Shown piece by piece: positions 3,180-42,000 of a stretch of DNA of 64,000 nt. The stretch is taken from assembly GCA_016699875.1 (NCBI GenBank), contig CP064989.1, positions 520,788 through 584,787 on the forward strand. The letters run 5' to 3'. The stretch's first letter is position 1; each line of letters begins with the position of its first letter. The stretch is from Candidatus Moraniibacteriota bacterium (GTDB taxonomy: Bacteria > Patescibacteriota > Minisyncoccia > Moranbacterales > UBA1568). Made by a program: the position numbers and the translations under genes. The notes beneath the pieces were generated by a model. It was not told where the DNA came from. It was given only the letters and a program-made list of their open reading frames with translations, and did no database searches.

Positions 3180-3260
3180 CATTCATTTCACCAAAGCAAA
3201 CCTGCGACGCGACGAAGTCAGCCAAAGATTGCAAGGCGACATTCGCTATTTCAAAACTCT

Positions 3261-3506
3261 ATGAAAGGCCACACCGTTCCGCTTCCGCCGGATGCGCCGA
3301 AGAAAGGCGAAATATACCGCCACTACAAGGGCGATTCGTACAAAGTGCACGAACTCGCACTACATTCGAATGATGAGGAGTGGATGGTGATATACGAGCC
3401 ACTCTACGAAAACCCCGATGCGCCGCTCTTTACGCGCCCGCTTCGCGAATGGCGCCAAGTCGTCGAATGGAACGGGAATCACGTCGAACGATTCAAAAAA
3501 ATCTGA
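3261..3506 (+). CDS. DUF1653-family small protein
   Basis: MKGHTVPLPPDAPKKGEIYRHYKGDSYKVHELALHSNDEEWMVIYEPLY...: matches the conserved YRHYKG...Y.V...A.HSE core of DUF1653; upstream part of six-frame ORF overlaps tRNA-Ser so start moved to 3261. Confidence 0.7.
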   Translation: MKGHTVPLPPDAPKKGEIYRHYKGDSYKVHELALHSNDEEWMVIYEPLYENPDAPLFTRPLREWRQVVEWNGNHVERFKKI

Positions 3507-3512
3507 ATATTC

Positions 3513-4397
3513 ATGTCCTCTCCCCACAAACACGCCTACGACGCCTTCGGGTCGCATTGGGAAATAACCGTGTGGGACGATATATCATCGTCCCATTTTC
3601 ATGCGATCATAAGGGAAATCCTCGCGCGATCGGAACGATTTGAAGAGAACTTCTCGCGCTTCCGCCCATCATCCTTTGTCTCACGCCTCGCAGAAGAGAA
3701 ACAAACCGGCGATATCGAGGTTCCGGAGCACTTCGTCGCCATGCTCCGGCCATATTTCCAGCTCTACAGCGCAACCGACGGGAAAATCACGCCGCTCATC
3801 GGCCACACCCTCTCCGACCTCGGCTACGACGCAAGCTATTCCCTCACACCGCAAAAGATAGTCCGACTTTCACCCGATCTCTTGGAAACCGTGACCCTAC
3901 TCGACAATACGCATATCGCTGTCAAATACCCTGTTCTCTTCGACTTCGGTGCGATCGGCAAGGGCTATTTTACCGATCGCATCGCCAATTTCTTGCGCGA
4001 AAGTCGCATTCGAAGATTCCTCGTAAACGGAAGTGGCGATATTGTCTATGAAGGGAACAGCGAAACAATACGCGTAGGACTCGAGCATCCGAGCGATCCG
4101 ACACAGGTTGTGGGATCGATCGAAATGATGCAAGGCGCTTTCTGCGCTTCCGGAACCAATCGCCGAAGATGGCGAGATTACCACCATATCGTCGACCCCG
4201 ACACAACCCAATCCCCCGAGCACCTCCTCGCCACCTGGGTCCGCGCCGAAACCGCCGCGACCGCCGATCTCCTCGCCACCGCCCTCTTCCTCACGAATCC
4301 GAACGCGCTTCGAGCAGCCTTCCCTTTCGAATACGCCACTCTCAATCCGGATTTCTCACTCGAACAATCAATCGGTTTTAAAGCAATCACCTATTGA
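3513..4397 (+). CDS. apbE: FAD:protein FMN transferase (ApbE family flavin transferase)
   Basis: 294 aa; conserved ApbE motifs incl. DFGAIGKGY and C-terminal DPDTTQSP region. Confidence 0.85.
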   Translation: MSSPHKHAYDAFGSHWEITVWDDISSSHFHAIIREILARSERFEENFSRFRPSSFVSRLAEEKQTGDIEVPEHFVAMLRPYFQLYSATDGKITPLIGHTLSDLGYDASYSLTPQKIVRLSPDLLETVTLLDNTHIAVKYPVLFDFGAIGKGYFTDRIANFLRESRIRRFLVNGSGDIVYEGNSETIRVGLEHPSDPTQVVGSIEMMQGAFCASGTNRRRWRDYHHIVDPDTTQSPEHLLATWVRAETAATADLLATALFLTNPNALRAAFPFEYATLNPDFSLEQSIGFKAITY

Positions 4398-5684: not shown

Positions 5685-6239
5685 ATGGGTAGCGTGGCTT
5701 TTCTGTCGACTCCGGGCGCATTGCTCGCTGAAGTTGTCTGCATTGGGTTTCTCTGCCTGATACAGGTATTCCTCATAGTACAGCTCTTTCGCAAGACACG
5801 TCAGCTCGATGAGCGCCAAAAAATGTTCCTTAAAGGAAAGCACGGCGCCGATCTCGAATCGGTTATCGTGCGACATGATCAGGAAATCGGCAATCTCGAC
5901 ACCGAAATACAAGAGCTCTTCGCTCTCGCCGAGCAGATTCGCGAGCTTGCCATGATCGGCATTCACAAAGTCGGCATTGTCCGCTTCAACCCATTCCAGG
6001 ATACGGGAAGCAACCAGAGCTGGAGCATCGCGCTCCTCGACGGAGACACGACCGGTCTCGTTATCTCTTCCCTTCTCTCCCGAGAATCGGCGCGCGTCTA
6101 TGCAAAGCCGGTTGTGCAAGGGCAGGCAAAGGATTTCCCGTTCACCGCCGAAGAAAAGCGCGCCATAGAGCTCGCACAAACCTCCAGAGACCCCAAGAAA
6201 GCACCCGCGACTCCAACGCAGATCCCGACGAAGAAGTAA
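5685..6239 (+). CDS. DUF4446 family protein
   Basis: N-terminal TM segment, conserved RFNPFQDTGSNQSWSIALLD...ISSLLSRESARVYAKP block characteristic of DUF4446; opposite-strand 320-aa ORF judged antisense artefact. Confidence 0.65.
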   Translation: MGSVAFLSTPGALLAEVVCIGFLCLIQVFLIVQLFRKTRQLDERQKMFLKGKHGADLESVIVRHDQEIGNLDTEIQELFALAEQIRELAMIGIHKVGIVRFNPFQDTGSNQSWSIALLDGDTTGLVISSLLSRESARVYAKPVVQGQAKDFPFTAEEKRAIELAQTSRDPKKAPATPTQIPTKK

Positions 6240-9028: not shown

Positions 9029-9172
9029 GACACAAACACCTCTCTCAATAAAGTCCAAAACAAGAATGACCACCCCTCGAAATTTCTCTGTTCGAGGCAC
9101 TTTGTGGTATTTTTTAAACAACTCCGTTTGACTTGTCAATATATCTTGGGTAGTCTGTACTGTCAACTCATT

Positions 9173-10714
9173 ATGGTCGAAAAACCACACATATTACCTC
9201 CTCCTGTCCTCGAAATACTCGCCACTCTCGAACAGGCGGGATTCGAGGCCTTTGTCGTGGGCGGAAGCGTTCGCGATATTCTTCTCGGGCGCGAACCAAA
9301 AGACTGGGACATCACTACCAATGCCGTTCCGGAAGAAATCCAGCGCCTTTTTCCTGAGAGCTTCTATGAAAACACTTTCGGCACTGTCGGCGTAAAAGTA
9401 ACGCCCTTCATGCCCGCAGGAAAAGAAAATCGCGAAGAAGATGTGATCGAAGTCACCACCTACCGCGCCGAATCCGGCTATAACGACAAACGCCACCCCT
9501 CGAAAATCTCTTTCGTAAAAACAGTCGAAGAAGACCTTGCCCGCCGCGATTTCACCATAAACGCGATCGCTCTCTCGGCACACGGAAACCTCGTCGATCC
9601 GTTCAATGGACAGGGCGATTTGAAGCAAAAAATCATTCGCGCCGTTGGAAATCCAATCGATCGCTTTGGCGAGGATGCACTTCGTATGCTCCGCGCCGTT
9701 CGGTTCTCTGCCGAACTCCGCACACCCATGCCACTTCCCAAAGGGTCATTCATGGACCAGAGCGACTCCAGCAACGATCTTCATAAACACGCCGACTGGC
9801 ACATAGAACCTGAAACCTTTTCCGCTATTCAAGCGCACGCGGGCGACATCCGCCTCATTTCCGCCGAACGCATCTCGGATGAACTCTCCAAAATCATCCT
9901 TTCTCGGAATCCCGCCGAGGGCATCGATCTCCTTCGCATCGCCGGACTCCTCGAGTATATCGCACCGGAAATCACCAAAGGCATCGGCGTCGGGCAAAAT
10001 CTCCATCATATCTATTCCGTCTACGAGCACAACATTCGCGCCCTCGCCACCTGCCCCTCGCCGCGGCTCGACGTCCGCCTTGCCGCCCTCCTTCACGACG
10101 TGGGCAAACCCCAAACCAAGCGCGGCAATGGCTATCGCTCCACCTTCTACAACCACGATCATGTCGGTGCAAGAATCACGAGAAAACTCCTCGAGCGCCT
10201 CCGCTTCCCCGGCAAGATCATCGAAAAAGCAACGCTCCTCGTTGACAACCACCTGTTTTACTATAATGTAGGGGAAGTGACGGCCGCGTCGGTCCGCCGA
10301 CTGATCAAGCGCGTCGGGCTCGAGAACATGCGCGACCTCATGGATATCCGCATCGCCGACCGCCTCGGCTCCGGCACGCCAAAAGCGAAGCCCTACAAAC
10401 TCCGCCACCTCGAGTACATGATCGAGAAGGTTTCGAAAGACCCTGTCTCCGTCAAGATGCTCGCCATAAACGGTCGCGACCTCATGAAAACGCTCCGCTT
10501 ATCGCCCGGGCCGAAAATCGGCGCCATCCTCGACGTTCTCCTTGCCGAAGTCATCGAGGACCCGACAAGCAATACGGAAACAGCACTCCTTCGGCGAGCT
10601 GCCTCACTCAACAAGGAAGACATAAGCCGTCTCCGCATACTTGCCAAAGACCGCATCAAGGAAAAACGTGCCAAAGATGACCAAAACACCAAGCAAAAGC
10701 ACTGGGTGCAATGA
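9173..10714 (+). CDS. cca: CCA-adding tRNA nucleotidyltransferase with HD domain
   Basis: PolyA-pol head VVGGSVRDILLGREPKDWDITT, RRDFTINA motif, C-terminal HD domain (HD...LLHDVGK); start at MVEKPHIL (9173). Confidence 0.85.
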   Translation: MVEKPHILPPPVLEILATLEQAGFEAFVVGGSVRDILLGREPKDWDITTNAVPEEIQRLFPESFYENTFGTVGVKVTPFMPAGKENREEDVIEVTTYRAESGYNDKRHPSKISFVKTVEEDLARRDFTINAIALSAHGNLVDPFNGQGDLKQKIIRAVGNPIDRFGEDALRMLRAVRFSAELRTPMPLPKGSFMDQSDSSNDLHKHADWHIEPETFSAIQAHAGDIRLISAERISDELSKIILSRNPAEGIDLLRIAGLLEYIAPEITKGIGVGQNLHHIYSVYEHNIRALATCPSPRLDVRLAALLHDVGKPQTKRGNGYRSTFYNHDHVGARITRKLLERLRFPGKIIEKATLLVDNHLFYYNVGEVTAASVRRLIKRVGLENMRDLMDIRIADRLGSGTPKAKPYKLRHLEYMIEKVSKDPVSVKMLAINGRDLMKTLRLSPGPKIGAILDVLLAEVIEDPTSNTETALLRRAASLNKEDISRLRILAKDRIKEKRAKDDQNTKQKHWVQ

Positions 10715-31351: not shown

Positions 31352-32074
31352 ATGAGAGGAAACTTCGATATATCAAGTGTCCCAAAAGACGGATATCTCA
31401 TATTCCCCCTTTCCATGAGCCGTCTTGCAAACGCCCAATCAGGACAAGGGCTGTATGATTTTTTGGTCTACTTCGAAAGCAAAATTAAATACATCTCTAT
31501 AGATTGCATCCTTCTTTATACAAACGACCTATACCTCAACAGCAACGAGCAGGCAGTCGCTGTTCGTAGACGTTCTTTACATCAGATGCTCGGACATAAA
31601 GGTGAGTTCAAAAACATCCTTCTCAAAGAACGACGATATGTACCACAAGCATTTCACTTTCTACCATGGGATTATGGAACCCTCAACGCCGAAGGCTTTA
31701 CCGAAGCAAAAAATTTACTTCTTCATATTGCCAAAAACAATGACGATTTCCAAAAATGCCTCCTGAATGACCTTCGAAATCAAGGGCGAGAGGAGTCCGA
31801 TATAAACATTGGTTTTCTAATAGAAGAAATCGCTGTCACTTGTATGCTCACTAGAGGTGACATACCCCTCCCACATATTCTCGCCACCGAAAACGGCTGG
31901 CGACTCATTTGCTACCCTGGCAATCCAATAAGTTCCCTAGTTTACACGTACAAGAACAATTTGTTGCAAGATAAAACCAAACCATCAAAAGATAGCCACT
32001 TATTTTCTCGATCGTTTTACAATATGGAGAAGAAGATTTTGATCGACTTTGATACCGCTGAAATTTCACAGTAA
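31352..32074 (+). CDS. Hypothetical protein (AT-rich, tRNA-flanked accessory gene)
   Basis: 240-aa ORF between tRNA-Phe and tRNA-Met; low GC, no SD recognised, no known domain. Confidence 0.45.
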   Translation: MRGNFDISSVPKDGYLIFPLSMSRLANAQSGQGLYDFLVYFESKIKYISIDCILLYTNDLYLNSNEQAVAVRRRSLHQMLGHKGEFKNILLKERRYVPQAFHFLPWDYGTLNAEGFTEAKNLLLHIAKNNDDFQKCLLNDLRNQGREESDINIGFLIEEIAVTCMLTRGDIPLPHILATENGWRLICYPGNPISSLVYTYKNNLLQDKTKPSKDSHLFSRSFYNMEKKILIDFDTAEISQ

Positions 32075-32130: not shown

Positions 32131-32202
32131 GGGACCGTAGCTCAGCGGTAGAGCAGGGGACTCATAATCTCTTGGTCGCTGGTTCGAATCCAGCCGGTCC
32201 CA
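32131..32202 (+). tRNA. tRNA-Met/Ile2 (anticodon CAT), elongator type
   Basis: Fully paired 1:72 G-C acceptor (not initiator), anticodon loop ctCATaa, T-loop TTCGAAT. Confidence 0.75.
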
Positions 32203-32313
32203 CAGAGGATTGCAAAGAGGCACTTTTTTCGCTAGTATTCCTCCTAGAACATCATGCTGCGCCGGGAAGTTAGCGCATGAGACGGGTTTGCCCGCCGGAG
32301 CAGCAGAACACAA

Positions 32314-32385
32314 GCGGGTATCGTATAGCGGCTATTATGTAACCTTGCCAAGGTTAAGATACGGGTTCGACTCCCGTTACCCGCT
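32314..32385 (+). tRNA. tRNA-Gly (anticodon GCC)
   Basis: Acceptor GCGGGTA/TACCCGC, anticodon stem taacc/ggtta with loop ttGCCaa, T-loop TTCGACT. Confidence 0.78.
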
Positions 32386-32390
32386 CAGGT

Positions 32391-32433
32391 AATTAAAATC
32401 ACCTCAATTGAGGTGATTTTAAGTTTTTCGATT
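32391..32433 (+). terminator. Intrinsic terminator after tRNA-Gly (also the first copy of the att-like duplicated sequence)
   Basis: aatcacctc-aatt-gaggtgatt perfect hairpin followed by ttaagttttt. Confidence 0.65.
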
Positions 32434-32445
32434 ATACTTGTTCTT

Positions 32446-32970
32446 ATGGGTACACCTCAAAAGCCAGGTAAGCAAACTTGGATATCTGAGAAAATCGAAA
32501 TTCAAAACTCTCCTATTGGCGGCAGAGGTATGTTTGCAGTCGAGAAAATCAACAAAAATGAATCGGTACTGGTATGGGGTGGGGAGTATGTGAAGAGTGA
32601 ACAAGCACAAAAAGCAAAAAATAAAGAGAAGCTCGTCATGCAGTGGGATGACGAGCTCTACAGTATCGAAGACCGAGGTGATGACCAGGGATATTTCCTT
32701 AATCATTCTTGTGATCCGAATGTCTGGATGAGTGATGCTTATACGCTTATTGCCAGACGTGACATCAGAGTTGGAGAAGAGGTAACGGCCGACTATGTCC
32801 TGTGGGAAGCTGATGAAAATAAAGTATCAAAATGGGAGTGTTACTGTGGCGCTACAGGGTGCCGTAAGCGGGTAACAGGAAAAGATTGGCAGATACCAGA
32901 ACTTCAGGCAAAATATCGTGGACATTTTTCACCACTGCTTAATAAGCGGATTTCTGCAATGCATTTCTAA
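32446..32970 (+). CDS. SET-domain protein (putative protein-lysine methyltransferase)
   Basis: GRGMFA N-SET start, NHSCDPN pseudoknot motif, DY catalytic Tyr region, post-SET Cys cluster CYCGATGCRKR. Confidence 0.8.
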   Translation: MGTPQKPGKQTWISEKIEIQNSPIGGRGMFAVEKINKNESVLVWGGEYVKSEQAQKAKNKEKLVMQWDDELYSIEDRGDDQGYFLNHSCDPNVWMSDAYTLIARRDIRVGEEVTADYVLWEADENKVSKWECYCGATGCRKRVTGKDWQIPELQAKYRGHFSPLLNKRISAMHF

Positions 32971-32986
32971 CCGCGTGTGCCAGCCA

Positions 32987-33033
32987 GCTCAGGTTAATTA
33001 ATTTAAAATAAGCCTCAAAGGGCTGATTTTAAA
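32987..33033. repeat. Diverged duplicate of the tRNA-Gly 3' flank/terminator (gctcaggttaattaa...gcctcaaagggctgatttta), att-like
   Basis: ~70% identical over 45 nt to 32383-32423; brackets the SET gene as a direct repeat. Confidence 0.6.
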
Positions 33034-33081
33034 TTACAGTGAAATGGGTTTATTACTAACAAACACATTAAACGTACTATA

Positions 33082-33504
33082 ATGGCTTTTTACAATAAGA
33101 TAGGACTGCTCGTCCTCAATAAAGAAAGAACTAAATTTCTGGTTTGCGAAAAAGACAAGAATAACGTAACAAACGACTATATAATGCCCGGTGGACAGTT
33201 TTTTGAAGATTCCATCGAGGAGTGCTTAAAAAATGAAATCAAAGAGGAGTTAGACTGCGAAATTAACTTCAATACCTTGCAGTTTATTGGTGAGTACATC
33301 GATATTGCGGCAGGAGTTCCTACCAAAGAGGTCTCCATACAACTCTACCAGGGTGACTTAATAGGCGATCCAACCCCCTCTTCCGAAATTAAATTTGTAC
33401 ATTGGGTTGGAAAAAATGACGCAAGCAACACACGACTATCTCCAATTGTTAAGAACAAGATAATCCCAGATCTACTGAAAAGATCAATATTAAAGCCAGA
33501 GTAA
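33082..33504 (+). CDS. NUDIX hydrolase
   Basis: Nudix box GGQFFEDSIEECLKNEIKEELD (GX5EX7REUXEEXGU pattern). Confidence 0.8.
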   Translation: MAFYNKIGLLVLNKERTKFLVCEKDKNNVTNDYIMPGGQFFEDSIEECLKNEIKEELDCEINFNTLQFIGEYIDIAAGVPTKEVSIQLYQGDLIGDPTPSSEIKFVHWVGKNDASNTRLSPIVKNKIIPDLLKRSILKPE

Positions 33505-33542
33505 ACCCCTTCTCTGCTAGGGGCTTCATTTTTTCTTACACG

Positions 33543-33797
33543 CAAATCAATGCAAGGATTTGTACATATACACTGTCTGCACAACGACCAATAGCGAAAG
33601 GTGAAGAAATAACTGCCGATTATTCCCTTTGGGAGGCAAATGAAGACAAAATATCCGCATGGGAGTGCCACTGTCAATCAAAAAACTGTCGCAAGAGAAT
33701 AACCGGAAAGGACTGGTATATTCCCAAGCTGCAAACAGAATACCGGAACCATTTCTCTCCGCTTCTCAACAGCAGAATTGCGCATCAAAGCATATGA
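33543..33797 (+). pseudogene. 3'-terminal remnant of a second SET-domain gene (no start codon, degraded NHSC motif)
   Basis: Frame reads ...INARICTYTLSAQRPIAKGEEITADYSLWEANEDKISAWECHCQSKNCRKRITGKDWYIPKLQTEYRNHFSPLLNSRIAHQSI*, colinear with C-terminus of the 32446-32970 protein. Confidence 0.6.
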
Positions 33798-34825
33798 ACA
33801 ACAAAAATATATTCTTAGCGCCCGGAGCCGGTCAATACGTAAAGAATTATGAGATCGGCGATGGCGCTGATATTTGGCTTGGACAAGAAACCATTCCAAT
33901 AGACAATCCGCATTGCTTTATTGGACACAGCTTGGGAGTAAATTTCCTCTTGAGCAAGAAAATCAATACCGCTTGCACGCTCATCTGCGTCAATCCTCTT
34001 GTAAAGAAGCGCGCGCTTTTCTCGCTCTTCATTCGTTGGATAAAATTCCTTCTCTTTGAAGGTATACCCAAAGAAAAACTCGTGCCTCTCGCCTATTGGC
34101 CAAGCAATATCAAGAAGGCTTTGCAATTACTCAAAATAGACACGCTCCACGAACTCCAGAGGTTTCCGAAAGAAAATATCAGCATTATCAGAGGAACGGA
34201 AGACAAATACTTTTGCACCACAGATGACGTAGCTGTATTGAAGAATCACGGATTTACCGTATTCGAGGTGCCCGCCGGGCATGATTGGAATGAAAACATC
34301 AAGAACACTGTTGCCAGCATTCTCCAAGAACGTGCAATTCACAACGAAAGCACCCCTTCTTCATCCATCCCTTCATCCCAAAGAAGCTGTGATACAATAA
34401 AAGAAAGTAAACGTCTCATGCTTATGAACGACCCGGCACCTGAACTCTCCGCAGAACAGCGAAAAGTCTGCCTGATAGACGATGAGGCGGATGTTCGCGA
34501 AATGTATACCATTGCCCTCACTGCAGAGGGTTTTGATGTGATTTCCGCAGACAATGGCGATACCGGACTCGCACTTATCCGAGCCGAGCACCCCGATATC
34601 ATCCTCCTTGATCTGCAAATGCCCGTCTCCGACGGATTCGATGTACTCACATCACTGTCCACTAACAAAGATATTGCCAAAATTCCCGTTATTATCCTCA
34701 GCAACACCGACAACGAAGAAGCCTTCAAAAAGGTCGGGACATTCAATACACGGTTTTTTCTCGTAAAAGCCCTCACAACCCCAAAGAAAGTCGCCGGCAT
34801 CGTACGAGAAGTCTTCATGGAATAG
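33794..34825 (+). CDS. Alpha/beta-hydrolase-like (GHSLG) domain fused to a C-terminal response-regulator receiver (REC) domain
   Basis: N-terminal ~200 aa with nucleophile-elbow GHSLG; C-terminal KVCLIDDEADVREMYT...DIILLDLQMPVSDGFDVL...IPVIILSN = CheY-like receiver with phospho-acceptor Asp; start at MNNKNIF because upstream part of six-frame ORF is the SET remnant in another frame. Confidence 0.7.
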   Translation: MNNKNIFLAPGAGQYVKNYEIGDGADIWLGQETIPIDNPHCFIGHSLGVNFLLSKKINTACTLICVNPLVKKRALFSLFIRWIKFLLFEGIPKEKLVPLAYWPSNIKKALQLLKIDTLHELQRFPKENISIIRGTEDKYFCTTDDVAVLKNHGFTVFEVPAGHDWNENIKNTVASILQERAIHNESTPSSSIPSSQRSCDTIKESKRLMLMNDPAPELSAEQRKVCLIDDEADVREMYTIALTAEGFDVISADNGDTGLALIRAEHPDIILLDLQMPVSDGFDVLTSLSTNKDIAKIPVIILSNTDNEEAFKKVGTFNTRFFLVKALTTPKKVAGIVREVFME

Positions 34826-35105: not shown

Positions 35106-35630
35106 ATGCGGTATTTTGGTACCCTTGTCTTCCTTGCGATTCTCTCATTCGGCATAACGAATGGGGCGCAAGCGGCAATCGATACCGATACCAATACGAA
35201 AACAACTCCTGAAACCGAAACCATTACCTGGAGCACCATTCTCGAGCAGTCGATTGAAGAGGATATCGAATCAGTCGACCCCCGAGATCATTCGCTCACT
35301 TCCTGGAAAACCAAACAGGCACACCTGTGGGACGCCTTGCCGGACGGAAAATTCATCATCAATGCCTCTGCCTATACGGCTGCGGCCGATGAATGCGGAA
35401 AGTCCGACGGCATCACCGCATCCGGCGTGAAAGTGCAGGAACACCGCACGCTCGCCTGTCCGCCCGCCTACCCCTTTGGTGCCAAAATCGCTATCGAAGG
35501 CTACGGCGTGTACACCTGCGAAGACCGTGGCGGCGCTATCAAAAACAATCACTTCGACATTTACATGGAAACCAAAACACAGGCATTCGCCTTCGGCCGG
35601 AAGAATCTGACCGCCGAAGTGGTCCGATAA
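35106..35630 (+). CDS. Secreted 3D-domain protein (YuiC/MltA-like cell-wall binding)
   Basis: Signal peptide; C-terminal ASAYTAAADECGKSDGITASG...ACPPAYPFGAKI...DRGGAI..HFDIYM = 3D domain. Confidence 0.75.
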   Translation: MRYFGTLVFLAILSFGITNGAQAAIDTDTNTKTTPETETITWSTILEQSIEEDIESVDPRDHSLTSWKTKQAHLWDALPDGKFIINASAYTAAADECGKSDGITASGVKVQEHRTLACPPAYPFGAKIAIEGYGVYTCEDRGGAIKNNHFDIYMETKTQAFAFGRKNLTAEVVR

Positions 35631-35999: not shown

Positions 36000-36479
36000 A
36001 TGTCTACTTTAAACCTGAAGAAAAATGTTCAAATCGTCCACTGGTCGAAAGATCTTTTGTGTGCGAAAATTCCCAATTTGGCATTGGAGACACCAGTACA
36101 TAGGCAGACTCAAATAGCAATTGAAACAACCTATAGCTATCAAGCTTGTCTATATATCTCTAGTCAACTTACTGAAGCGTTGCTGTGTTTTGTGTTGCAT
36201 TTTGGTAAACACTGGGATGAGTTGGAACGACACGGAACAAATCTTCGCGAACACTTTCGACGTCAAGGTTTCTCTTGTATAGAGGGAGAGCCTCATCGAG
36301 GTCAGATGTCGATCAAAAATTACAACATAACACTCACTAACTGCTATCCGGATTGCATACATGATGCATATTGCATCCGGGAAATGAATCAGCTTAAGCT
36401 GTTCAAGTCGGAGATTTGTCAATCCCTTGGTGGCACTCATATCTCTTTCCGTGATATTAAACGTATAAGAGGGTACTAG
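36000..36479 (+). CDS. Hypothetical protein (AT-rich, downstream of tRNA pair)
   Basis: GGAGGA SD 9 nt upstream; 159 aa; Cys/His-rich, no recognised domain. Confidence 0.5.
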   Translation: MSTLNLKKNVQIVHWSKDLLCAKIPNLALETPVHRQTQIAIETTYSYQACLYISSQLTEALLCFVLHFGKHWDELERHGTNLREHFRRQGFSCIEGEPHRGQMSIKNYNITLTNCYPDCIHDAYCIREMNQLKLFKSEICQSLGGTHISFRDIKRIRGY

Positions 36480-36690
36480 TGTAGCAGCAAGAGAAAAAAT
36501 GCTCTGAGACAGGTCCTGGGAAAATCAATCCTACATAGCTTCATTGTACGTTACAAGCCTTGCGAATTGCGAGGCTTTTTAAGTTATCCATCTACTCTTT
36601 AAGGTAAGGCAAACCTCACCAGCAAAACTATTTCCCTTCTGTATCATTTTACCTAGTAGTATAATGTTGAGCATGGTCTTGGAGGCTATT

Positions 36691-37206
36691 TCAAAGGGGT
36701 GCTGTGAAAGTTCGAATATATTCCACCGTTTCCTCCAACTCACTTCTCTCAGATATAGCCTCTTCTCGGATACAATCAAGGAAATTCTTTTCTTTGTACC
36801 AAGATTTCATTTCCTCCTCGCCAAATTCATGGCAGTTTGGTTTTGTTTTATGGCGTTTCAATGTTTCTTCAAACGAAATATCAAAATAAAAGAAGAAATT
36901 TTGCACAGGGTGTTCGGCAAGAATTGATTGAAACATTTCCTGATAACGGTCCCGATTAAATATCCCTTCCATGATAACGTTATATCCTTCTTGCAAAAGG
37001 AGAATCGTTACTATTTTGATGAGTTCCGCATTATATCCGCCCTGTAGATCTCTTTCTTTAAGGATAGTGCGTCGAAAATAGTCTTGCTCTACATACGCCA
37101 TCTTTCTTCCTTGTGCTAACTCGCGATCCTGTATTGTCTTGGCAATCGTACTTTTCCCTGCGCCGGATGGTCCGCGAAGAACGATAAGTGTTGTAGCATT
37201 TTTCAT
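36691..37206 (-). CDS. P-loop NTPase/kinase (AAA_33 / zeta-toxin-like fold)
   Basis: Walker A LRGPSGAGKSTIAK; ~170 aa small kinase architecture. Confidence 0.7.
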   Translation of the reverse strand: MKNATTLIVLRGPSGAGKSTIAKTIQDRELAQGRKMAYVEQDYFRRTILKERDLQGGYNAELIKIVTILLLQEGYNVIMEGIFNRDRYQEMFQSILAEHPVQNFFFYFDISFEETLKRHKTKPNCHEFGEEEMKSWYKEKNFLDCIREEAISERSELEETVEYIRTFTAPL

Positions 37207-39833: not shown

Positions 39834-41544
39834 GTTCCACATGGAACATATTAGAGCTCTTCGACATTCAGAATCTCCACACAAAGAAGTTTCATGTGCA
39901 ACAAAGCTTTATCAAAAGAATAATATCCATTCCAAAAAATTCCTTGTTTTCCACGCCATGTACCGGTGTGCCCTCAGCAATGCTACATTAATTACCAGCA
40001 AGATCTACTCGTACTTTTTATAAACACACCCAACAGAATATACAAAACGTTCCACAAGGAACATGAGCCACCTCGTACAGACATAGGTAGACTGATTCAC
40101 GTGAAACATTTTGGCAAGCATACATTACATACTGTCATTGTTCCACAAGGAATAAGTAAATACCCCCTATTACACCTAGTGAAGAAATATATCTCAGAGA
40201 ATCCAACAAAAAATACAAAGTTTTTATTATAGACATCTTTAAAGTTCCGATTCATCTTTCCGTCCAAGAATTCCATAATACCACCACAAAATTGTTCCAC
40301 GTGAAAAATAATATGCCATGAGAAACATCGAGAAAATAAAACTACTCAATAAGTTCCACATGGAATACTGTCCGCAGTCGACATGCTTACCAACATTACT
40401 TATACAGATACATTTGGACTGGTTCGTTATGCAAGAACAATTATTGTTCCACGTGGAAATCAAAAATCGGGATACCACTAAGAGACATGAAAAAGCATGT
40501 TCCATGTGAATCAGACAAGCGAGATAAGAAAACAAATACCAACTGAGACAAGCCGCGACTCGAATGCAATGCCGCTTAATAACTAAAAATTTCGCTGACA
40601 AGAGTTCTGCTAATTATCAATATGATTCAGTGACAATAAAAACGTTGCACGTGAAACGCTGTGTATAGTTAAACAACAGGTCTGACAAAATGCTTGTTCC
40701 ACATGGAGCAATCCGGTTGCTCGAAAACGGAAATTAGACAAAAATACCTACACTTGTATGCATACAAAAACAGCCTACCGGACAACAGTATCTATACAAA
40801 AAAACACCCCCCGGGAGAATAATCCAAAAAAAAAAAAAAAAAACCAAAGGATATATACTAATAATCGTGGTCAGATATGTTCCACAAGGAACTTGTAATT
40901 CAGATACCTGAATATACTGCTCCACATGAAACAATAACGAAGATCATCACGAAACAGACAGCAAACAAAATATCGAAAAATTCCTACAAAAAATTCACCT
41001 AAAGGGAGTTACAATAGCAACAAGCAGCTCAATATAATGACTTCACCAAAATCAATACAAAAGAAATAGTTGTTCCACATGAAACAACGGGGAATATAAC
41101 CAATACAGCCACTTAAAACCCAGAGATATACAGGGCGTGGAATTGCTTTCATAACACAGCGAAAGAACAGAAGAATACAGTCAATGATCTACATACTTTC
41201 TGCATTGCTCAAGAAAGATAATTTCAGCGCACTGTATATACAATATACATACGCAGTGGAACTTACAAAAAGCAATTATTAAGGCGATCTTAACGTGAGG
41301 AGCGTTAATCTCAGATAATTCCATGTGAAACAAAATGAAAAATGTTCCACGCGCAACAATAACACCCGCTCAAAAAGCTTTATTTCAAGATCTATCGAGC
41401 AATCTCGTGGCAACAAAGCAGAGCAATAGAGTGCCCATGTATGGCGATTCAGAGACTACGCCACATGAATACACCAATAAAGAAATCTTTGATTTTAATA
41501 CTCCCGCTATACTCGCAAGTATATAAAATGTTCCACGTGAAACT
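39834..41544. repeat. Array of ~16 parS-like 16-bp palindromes (TGTTCCACGTGAAACA family) in a gene-free AT-rich region
   Basis: Sites (core coordinates): 39834, 39889, 40049, 40096, 40140, 40293, 40352, 40445, 40498, 40643, 40696, 40879, 40918, 41071, 41317, 41343, 41529; several within 1 mismatch of consensus. Confidence 0.8.
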
Positions 41545-42000
41545 ATTCGCGTGATTCTCAGAGAAATACGTGAAACATGCGAACAGAAAAACCGCGAGAT
41601 CATTGTCATCACCGGTCCAATTTAAATCCAACAATATCAACTCTTTGAAGAGAGATGGTTTGCCTTCAAAGGCTTGTAGCTGCTTTATCAATGCGGAAGA
41701 AGTCCTTTATCCAGACATTACACTGAGAGAATGCGATAGGAACAATATTTTCACTCACTACCATAGCAGTCACCAAAAAAACACATCGGCAGTGAAAATT
41801 ACACATAGTAAACTAAGAAAAGACACAAAAAAATCCTTCAGACAAACGCCCGCCACAAATTACAGCGAATCTCTGCAATCCGCGACACTCACCATTAAAT
41901 CATTCCAAAAATTTCTTCATCTATATTTGACACGTCAGGGAAAAGTTTTTTTTGAATAAAGTGTGGTATACTGCACAGTGATATTCTACTTCGATATCAT

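Follow-up and report, generated by a model that had tools for sequence, protein, structure and literature searches.

A SET-domain gene bracketed by a tRNA-derived direct repeat at an insertion hot spot behind tRNA-Gly in a Moranbacteria genome

Integrative elements that target tRNA genes insert at the tRNA 3' end, are flanked by direct repeats that contain the tRNA terminus, bring varied cargo to a given site and stand out as AT-rich segments. Their integrase-less derivatives are known as cis-mobilisable elements (CIMEs). Here we analyse a locus that resembles them in all four respects, the stretch between a tRNA-Gly gene and the gene of a 3D-domain protein in a Moranbacteria genome (candidate phyla radiation, CPR, or Patescibacteria), contained in a 64-kb piece of contig CP064989.1 that we refer to as the window. 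This stretch is a hot spot of cassette insertion, and its first gene, SET1, encodes a SET-domain protein and lies alone between two copies of a repeat that joins the last 8 nt of the tRNA to a hairpin. Unlike the described elements, the SET1 islet measures 0.6 kb and consists of one gene, no integrase was found with it, its core is short and imperfect, and the similarity of its flanks runs on into the hairpin. The locus is an ordinary kind of tRNA-linked genomic islet with an unusually clean junction.

Integron cassettes and CALIN arrays (clusters of attC sites lacking integron-integrases) are the second group of systems with which the locus can be compared. Single open reading frame (ORF) units, a conserved 3' site, arrays (seen in the related locus L011; L and P numbers denote comparison loci and proteins) and one fixed primary site are common to both. 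In contrast to integrons, the window site has neither IntI nor the R''/L''/L'/R' architecture of attC with its GTTRRRY core, and a tRNA terminus serves as its primary site.

As for the cargo, to our knowledge the organisms that carry the SET1 family have no histones. Characterised prokaryotic SET proteins include Go1-SET of Methanosarcina mazei, which methylates MC1-alpha, an endogenous DNA-binding protein, chlamydial NUE, Legionella RomA/LegAS4 and Bacillus anthracis BaSET (review PMC3980110). SET1 is like them a small SET protein, a comparison made by description and not by sequence, and a 54%-identical homologue occurs in a metagenome-assembled genome of Methanosarcinales (L042; compare Go1-SET). 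Unlike the NUE/RomA-type effectors, SET1 shows no secretion context. With the eukaryote-type SET lysine methyltransferases (MLL1/KMT2A) it shares the Pfam match, the GxG and NHSC motifs, the catalytic Tyr, CxCx4C and a confidently predicted SET fold. It differs from them as a stand-alone protein of 174 aa without partner domains, and its family has a conserved C-terminal tail, TGKDW...Q..Y..HFSPL.N.RI.

Repeat and junctions at the tRNA-Gly end

Our comparison of sequences indicates that elements bearing a shared arm and core probably integrate site-specifically at the 3' end of tRNA-Gly, and that SET1 replaced an older allele, SET2, at this position. An earlier sequence-only reading had noticed that the sequence after tRNA-Gly recurs beyond SET1 and that the two copies precisely bracket this single gene, and both observations hold. 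Positions 32380-32428 align with 32984-33036 at 39 identical bases out of 45 aligned, with three gaps (8 gap columns) and a Smith-Waterman score of 32, and this is the top match to 32380-32428 on either strand of the whole window. The score lies above the best value from each of 30 random Markov sequences of 64 kb, among which the maximum was 31, and none of 5000 position-specific nulls reached it. The direct repeat is imperfect, CCCGCTCA plus hairpin on the left against CCAGCTCA plus hairpin on the right; the hairpin of copy 1 is perfect over 13-15 bp (-16.7 kcal/mol) and that of copy 2 reaches -14.0 kcal/mol. The SET1 cassette starts one base past the core that ends tRNA-Gly, so that the insertion abuts the tRNA 3' end.

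An exact 23-mer of the repeat has no second occurrence in the window, even when up to 3 mismatches are allowed. The motif CC[ACG]GCTC[AC] is not enriched there (14 sites found against 10.7 expected), and only the two repeat sites among them precede hairpins. Since the repeat is unique in the window, it is no common terminator as far as the 64 kb shows, in line with the earlier view of a locus-specific duplication. The 3' part of copy 1, GGTGATTTTAAGTTTT, recurs in the HD-SET spacer of L011 (p=3e-4). The segment is also AT-richer than its surroundings, as had been stated: the GC content of 32387-33797 is 0.405 against a window mean of 0.488 (3rd percentile), and GC at third codon positions (GC3) is 0.39-0.42 against 0.58-0.62 in core genes.

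The right border of SET1 consists of an arm of ~22 nt followed by CCAGCCAGCTCA, a core that resembles the tRNA terminus. Arm plus core is found in four contexts, namely the window, L004, L093 and L214, and in the ~30 nt before the core 22 of 30 positions are identical between the window and L214, as are 22 of 30 between L214 and L093 (p<3e-4). The closest strain (L003-L006), 93% identical to the window, has tRNA-Gly, copy 1 and SET1. The identity between the window and L003-L004 ends right after CCAGCCAGCTC, inside copy 2, and resumes at 33811; between these points the closest strain carries an unrelated segment of 1.9 kb. L093 presents the same NUDIX cassette (98% aa identity) behind a different gene: the cassette starts with the same ggttaatta-hairpin and passes through the same junction into SET2, and is preceded by an unrelated, non-SET gene of 174 aa and, once more, by ...CACCAGCCAGCTCA. 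The genes of L214 resemble those of a mobile element over at least 5.7 kb, among them an Xre/ImmA-like pair, a C5 DNA methylase and small phage-like ORFs, and this stretch ends in ...CCAGTTCTAACCGTCTGTACCAGCCAGCTCA, which is again arm plus core. Behind this core come 56 nt that agree at every position with the native tRNA-Gly flank in SET2-type genomes, and the element end sits exactly where CCCGCTCA of tRNA-Gly would be.

Based on the window/L004 break and the junctions of L214 and L093, copy 2 is best read as attR-like, that is, as the arm and core of an element followed by the former tRNA-Gly flank. The same three observations support the earlier proposal of site-specific integration at the tRNA-Gly 3' end.

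The same arrangement is seen at another tRNA in a different Patescibacteria lineage, where a SET homologue (L032) follows tRNA-His at a distance of 104 nt. The terminal 8 nt of this tRNA together with 34 nt of its flank recur at 42 of 42 positions ~90 nt after the SET stop, and the similarity extends to ~115 nt. No integrase was found within 6 kb on either side of this SET locus. The duplication occupies positions 5867-5990 and 6585-6700 of L032, and L025 has a diverged version in the same region.

Two further origins for these flanks were considered and rejected. The arm, like the sequence upstream of the repeats in L032 and L011, is not supported as a decayed tRNA 3' half, as its alignments to the T-arm and acceptor of tRNA are no better than those of shuffled sequences; and a match of the L004 flank after SET1 to a displaced tRNA-Gly flank of the L007 type was not significant. 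A scan of Joint Genome Institute (JGI) metagenomes with GCTCAGGTN{0,1}AATTAAN{0,6}AAAAT gave random matches and no relevant locus among the matches listed. A homologue search with a 233-aa hydrolase of L214 returned only short contigs.

The truncated SET2 gene and the history of the site

The sequence-only reading had described a start-less 3' remnant of a second SET gene, with its NHSC motif degraded to NARIC. A start-less SET fragment does extend to 33797 and matches Pfam SET at its C-terminal end only (E=0.003), but its homology does not begin at 33543 as proposed: colinear identity to the intact relative leaps from random to ~88% at 33564-33567. Since the homology starts only at ~33564, "NARIC" is unrelated sequence and not a decayed NHSC. 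No stop or frameshift interrupts the 78 codons that remain, which show a ratio of nonsynonymous to synonymous substitution rates (dN/dS) of 0.18. About the first 95-100 codons of SET2 are missing, at the junction with the NUDIX cassette, a gene between the two SET sequences that had been overlooked in an otherwise largely real observation.

The fragment is 82% identical in amino acids to P0006, the intact SET protein of L007, compared to 64-66% to SET1-type proteins (66% over 73 aa to SET1 itself, E=7e-38). Its stop codon overlaps the ATG of the 343-aa downstream gene (ATGA) at 33794, so that the native overlap is kept, and the window and L007 are ~80% identical in nucleotides from 33567 through the 3D gene, the same level as in the flanks. 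The identity to P0006, the native synteny and the abrupt start together indicate that the fragment is the resident SET2 orthologue, cleanly truncated at its 5' end.

Relatives that do not have SET1 carry SET2 at the tRNA-Gly site. In L007 the order is tRNA-Gly, SET, a 199-aa hydrolase-like gene, response regulator, 3D and tRNA-Cys, and the order tRNA-Gly, SET2, hydrolase-like, response regulator, 3D is common to L007, L012 and L215-219 (11 contigs); the same tRNA cluster also precedes SET in L012, L215 and L216. The earlier reading had advised a search of related genomes for the gene beside tRNA-Gly and for intact second copies; SET2 is present in L012, L215-219 and, intact, in L007, and it is not a duplicate of SET1. 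As judged from these gene orders, the common haplotype with SET2 directly behind tRNA-Gly is ancestral-like. Overall, the earlier observation is real with two errors of detail, and the comparison of loci supports its att-like reading.

We propose the following course of events. Site-specific recombination would insert elements bearing arm and core at the 3' end of tRNA-Gly, each event leaving arm plus core (attR) and, behind it, whatever had followed the tRNA before, which would become repeat copy 2. From an ancestral order of tRNA-Gly followed by SET2, a NUDIX-bearing insertion together with a deletion would have cut SET2, giving the junction common to the window and L093. The SET1 cassette would then have integrated at the tRNA end before the window and L004 split, and the L004 lineage would later have swapped the NUDIX segment and damaged SET1. 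The NUDIX/SET2 junction contains neither arm nor core, which points to a separate, illegitimate deletion. SET1 would now be an integrase-less single-gene element of 0.6 kb, either a remnant or mobilised in trans. Under site-specific integration, an attP-like circle junction would read ...TTCTAACCGCGTGTGCCAGCCAGCTCA joined directly to GGTAATTAAAATCACC, and an empty site ...GTTACCCGCTCA joined directly to GGTTAATTAATTTAAAAT.

Several points weigh against this proposal. No integrase or recombinase domain was found in the 26 window ORFs tested, in the L214 fragment or around L032, and the mechanism is therefore one that we infer; neither an empty site nor a circular junction was observed among the contigs compared. 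Core and tRNA have few bases in common (CC-GCTCA, 7/8). A simple short-core att model does not predict the likeness of copy 1, on the element side, to copy 2, the old host flank, and this likeness beyond the core would call for att identity over a long region or for an earlier capture of a tRNA flank. The resemblance of the arm to the tRNA T-arm is without statistical support. Finally, SET1 of L003/L004 carries a 7-bp deletion, so that the strain may be able to do without SET activity.

Allelic replacement by natural transformation, which we consider unlikely, would dispense with a site-specific system altogether. DNA of a related strain with the tRNA cluster, SET1 and NUDIX would have recombined homologously within the conserved tRNA genes and been joined illegitimately inside SET2 at its far end, and the two repeat copies would be similar AT-rich terminators. 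That no integrase was found would then be expected, as would the abrupt, illegitimate NUDIX/SET2 junction without arm or core; the tRNA genes are 90-100% conserved between haplotypes, and the synonymous divergence (dS) of SET1 is like that of its flanks, in line with stable inheritance since the window/L004 split. Random joins, however, would not produce the same 12-nt core and ~22-nt arm with three left and three right partners, nor would they make the L214 junction coincide exactly with the end of the tRNA. Copy 2 is moreover the best match to copy 1 in the window, and L032 has the same bracket, 42/42 identical, at another tRNA. At the far end of the scale, the tandem duplication of SET with decay of the second copy that the sequence-only reading had put forward is very improbable. 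It rests on two colinear SET sequences on the same strand, 0.6 kb apart, but the fragment is nearer to P0006 than to SET1, runs straight on into the native downstream gene, just as in L007, is cleanly cut and not decayed, and is separated from SET1 by the NUDIX gene.

The junctions could also belong to an integron-like system of the CPR whose integrase is distant, a reading to which we give a rather low probability. Single-ORF cassettes with a 5' hairpin, ending in an arm of ~30 nt and a core that mimics the last 7-8 nt of a tRNA, would be inserted serially at tRNA 3' ends by a recombinase encoded elsewhere and acting in trans; the targets would be Gly in Moranbacteria and His in another lineage, and SET would recur as one of the most successful cassettes. 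L011 fits this description with at least five consecutive small cassettes downstream of tRNA-Gly, with CCRGCTC and a hairpin at five successive boundaries and three near-identical 28-nt repeats, and the SET1-type cassette keeps its 5' hairpin and 3' arm both at array position 1 (window) and at position 3 (L011). At tRNA-His, the bracket in L032 and L025 encloses SET by itself, and the family is enriched directly after tRNAs: a tRNA on the same strand lies within 200 bp upstream of SET in 5 of 51 species-level loci, where 0.3% is expected per locus (p ~8e-7). Such a system would however work without a known recombinase, and few junctions are at hand. The junctions show CCRGCTC cores and plain terminator-like hairpins, not attC sites (RYYYAAC...GTTRRRY with a bulged hairpin) or attC-like R'/R'' cores, as judged by eye and without an attC model. 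HD and SET adjoin without any site in L001 and L059, two scans of viral contigs did not find arm plus core, and eroded larger islands can look the same. Should the arm-core junctions stem from an active cassette system mobilised in trans, ultra-small bacteria would have a new way of exchanging genes.

The locus offers a well-resolved natural case of genes being exchanged at a tRNA-linked hot spot of a CPR genome. The resident SET allele has been cut short, and another, divergent allele of this enzyme sits at the tRNA terminus, which suggests selection to keep the activity. The SET1 islet is a tRNA-linked islet of a known sort with an already annotated SET family member, and it gives a modest hint of a cassette-style integration system in the CPR.

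SET1 and its protein family

The assignment of SET1 to the SET-domain proteins, made earlier from its motifs, was confirmed by profile search and structure prediction. The protein matches Pfam SET (PF00856) at E=2.3e-14 with 54.1 bits, above the cutoff of 22.4, and GenBank labels it "SET domain-containing protein-lysine N-methyltransferase". Across 51 homologues the motifs G26-R-G28, N86-H87-S88-C89 and Y117 (TADY) are invariant or nearly so, and C132, C134 and C139 of the post-SET CxCx4C are invariant, as is C89. The best solved sequence relative is the MLL1 SET domain (PDB, E=1e-11). The AlphaFold2 model has a predicted local distance difference test score (pLDDT) of 92.8 and a predicted template modelling score (pTM) of 0.86, and in a Foldseek search with this model MLL1 is again best, with the SET domains of MLL4, NSD and ASH1L also on top, at probability 1.0.

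SET1 is under purifying selection, with a dN/dS of 0.18 against L004. Its dS of 0.26 is comparable with the 0.13-0.20 of the flanks, indicating stable inheritance of SET1 since the window and L004 diverged. Fold and motifs suggest that the protein is a methyltransferase dependent on S-adenosylmethionine (AdoMet, SAM). Its most likely substrate would be a lysine on an endogenous cytoplasmic protein, for example a nucleoid protein or another abundant basic protein, and it most likely replaces the truncated SET2 in function.

BurB (PDB 9l4t/9l4v) is a SET-fold enzyme solved with S-methylmethionine and SAM, and small molecules can thus serve as substrates of small proteins with this fold. BurB matches SET1 in sequence (E=2e-8) and in structure (Foldseek E=3.6e-7), which makes a non-protein substrate for SET1 conceivable. 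It ranks below the MLL-type matches, the sequence alignment covers only the C-terminal half, and no biosynthetic cluster lies by SET1. In a search for a defence-system assignment, SET1 had no PADLOC or PHROG match and NUDIX only a weak generic one.

In the closest strain, SET1 carries a 7-bp deletion (L003 98-130 and L004 133-165, corresponding to window 32495-32510) by which the N-terminus is lost; the only product called is one of 146 aa from an internal MFAV, and the deletion is present on 7 contigs. The SET genes of L059 and L066 also appear split over two frames.

Bacterial SET proteins had been described as rare and as best known either as effectors that target host chromatin or as methylators of bacterial nucleoid proteins, and neither the rarity nor the effector role fits this family. 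A word-indexed search gave at least 378 clusters at 90% identity of close SET1 relatives (378 of 390 candidates passed, mostly at 55-75% identity). In an exhaustive search, 104 clusters (50% identity) passed E<=1e-30 and 1522 passed E<=1e-10. The species-level genomes with members belong to many CPR lineages, DPANN archaea, Chloroflexi and others. This spread argues against a role as an effector in eukaryotic hosts, and for SET1, a cytoplasmic-looking protein, such a role is unlikely. Our literature search turned up no treatment of SET proteins in the CPR. The stand-alone SET enzymes of CPR, DPANN and Chloroflexi thus form a large family that is strongly conserved but uncharacterised, and its genes often lie directly behind tRNA genes.

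Fused forms were seen among the proteins P0010, P0025, P0036, P0046, P0061, P0081 and P0021 and in the list from the exhaustive search. SET is fused to a ~125-aa domain of unassigned family with a DGLHR motif, on either side of SET, and proteins of ~350-380 aa with two SET stretches exist. In P0021 SET is fused to a NUDIX domain, which is of another subfamily than that of the window. We rejected a conserved SET-NUDIX module, as the window-type NUDIX adjoins SET only in L093, and took the adjacency as incidental; in 53 loci, a strict scan for the Nudix box gave no match within 2.5 kb of SET.

Features and neighbourhood of the locus

Table 1 Coordinates of the features between tRNA-Gly and the 3D-domain gene, in window positions.
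Feature	Position	Strand	Basis and remarks
tRNA-Gly(GCC), last gene of the Leu-Val-Phe-Met-Gly tRNA cluster; proposed attachment point	32314-32386	+	ARAGORN
Core CCCGCTCA, terminal nucleotides of tRNA-Gly (putative attL-side core)	32380-32387	+	Junction comparison
Repeat copy 1: flank "ggtaatta", perfect hairpin (32393-32422) and T-run; left end of SET1 cassette	32388-32428	+	Identical in L004
SET1, intact SET and post-SET protein, 174 aa, ATG start	32446-32970	+	Pfam, PDB, AlphaFold2, Foldseek; GenBank QQS15278.1
attR-like arm (AATGCATTTCTAACCGCGTGTG, overlaps SET1 stop codon) and 12-nt core CCAGCCAGCTCA	32958-32991	+	Arm comparison with L214; L004 homology break
Repeat copy 2: "ggttaatta" and hairpin (32999-33036); putative displaced earlier tRNA-Gly flank, left end of NUDIX cassette	32992-33040	+	Travels with NUDIX in L093
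NUDIX hydrolase gene, 140 aa, separate cassette	33082-33504	+	Pfam NUDIX E=7.4e-6; QQS15279.1
Terminator-like hairpin and T-run after NUDIX	33506-33535	+	–
5'-truncated SET2 remnant, 78 codons and stop	33564-33797	+	82% aa identity to P0006; abrupt homology start
Native downstream gene, hydrolase-like region fused to response-regulator receiver domain	33794-34825	+	Pfam Response_reg E=1.7e-19
3D-domain protein, conserved right boundary of variable region	35106-35630	+	Pfam 3D; 92-97% aa identity in L003, L007, L012

The 343-aa gene downstream of SET2 is syntenic in L003, L007, L012 and L215-219. The hydrolase-like region and the response regulator form one 343-aa ORF in the window and in L003; in L007 and L215-219 they are separate genes of 199 aa and 133 aa. 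Upstream of the site lie tRNA genes, among them tRNA-Met (32131-32203, ARAGORN), and the genes of ribosomal protein L19 and of a metallo-beta-lactamase-fold protein, with no IntI next to the primary site.

In the L011 array, the 28-nt repeat AGTTCGAACATCATTGACRCACCRGCTCY is present at 2115-2143, 2694-2722 and 3218-3246. Each copy is followed by a terminator hairpin, the copies delimit small ORFs, and the first covers the last codons of the SET gene. In the variable region of L001, cassettes that follow one another are each preceded by a repeated motif like a promoter (TGGACA, 17 nt, TGCTATAAT), at 3279-3315, 3945-3981, 5736-5772 and 9151-9187.

The tRNA cluster itself contains a 240-aa ORF at 31352-32074, between tRNA-Phe and tRNA-Met, which is AT-rich (GC 0.408), has no Pfam or NCBIfam match and has no detected flanking repeat. 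The gap between these two tRNA genes is only ~110-270 nt in relatives (L215, L001), and the ORF looks like another insertion within the cluster. In L215, the spacer between tRNA-Phe and tRNA-Met (1760-1895) contains, ~90 nt beyond the tRNA-Phe gene, a second copy of its 3' end (gattctccccctcagcac), which may be an att scar at a further tRNA in this cluster. More AT-rich stretches (GC 0.36-0.40) are located at 36001-37000 by tRNA-Cys/Leu, where the ORF 36000-36479 is without a Pfam match, and at 40001-42000 by tRNA-Arg/Ala, and these stretches may be further islets.

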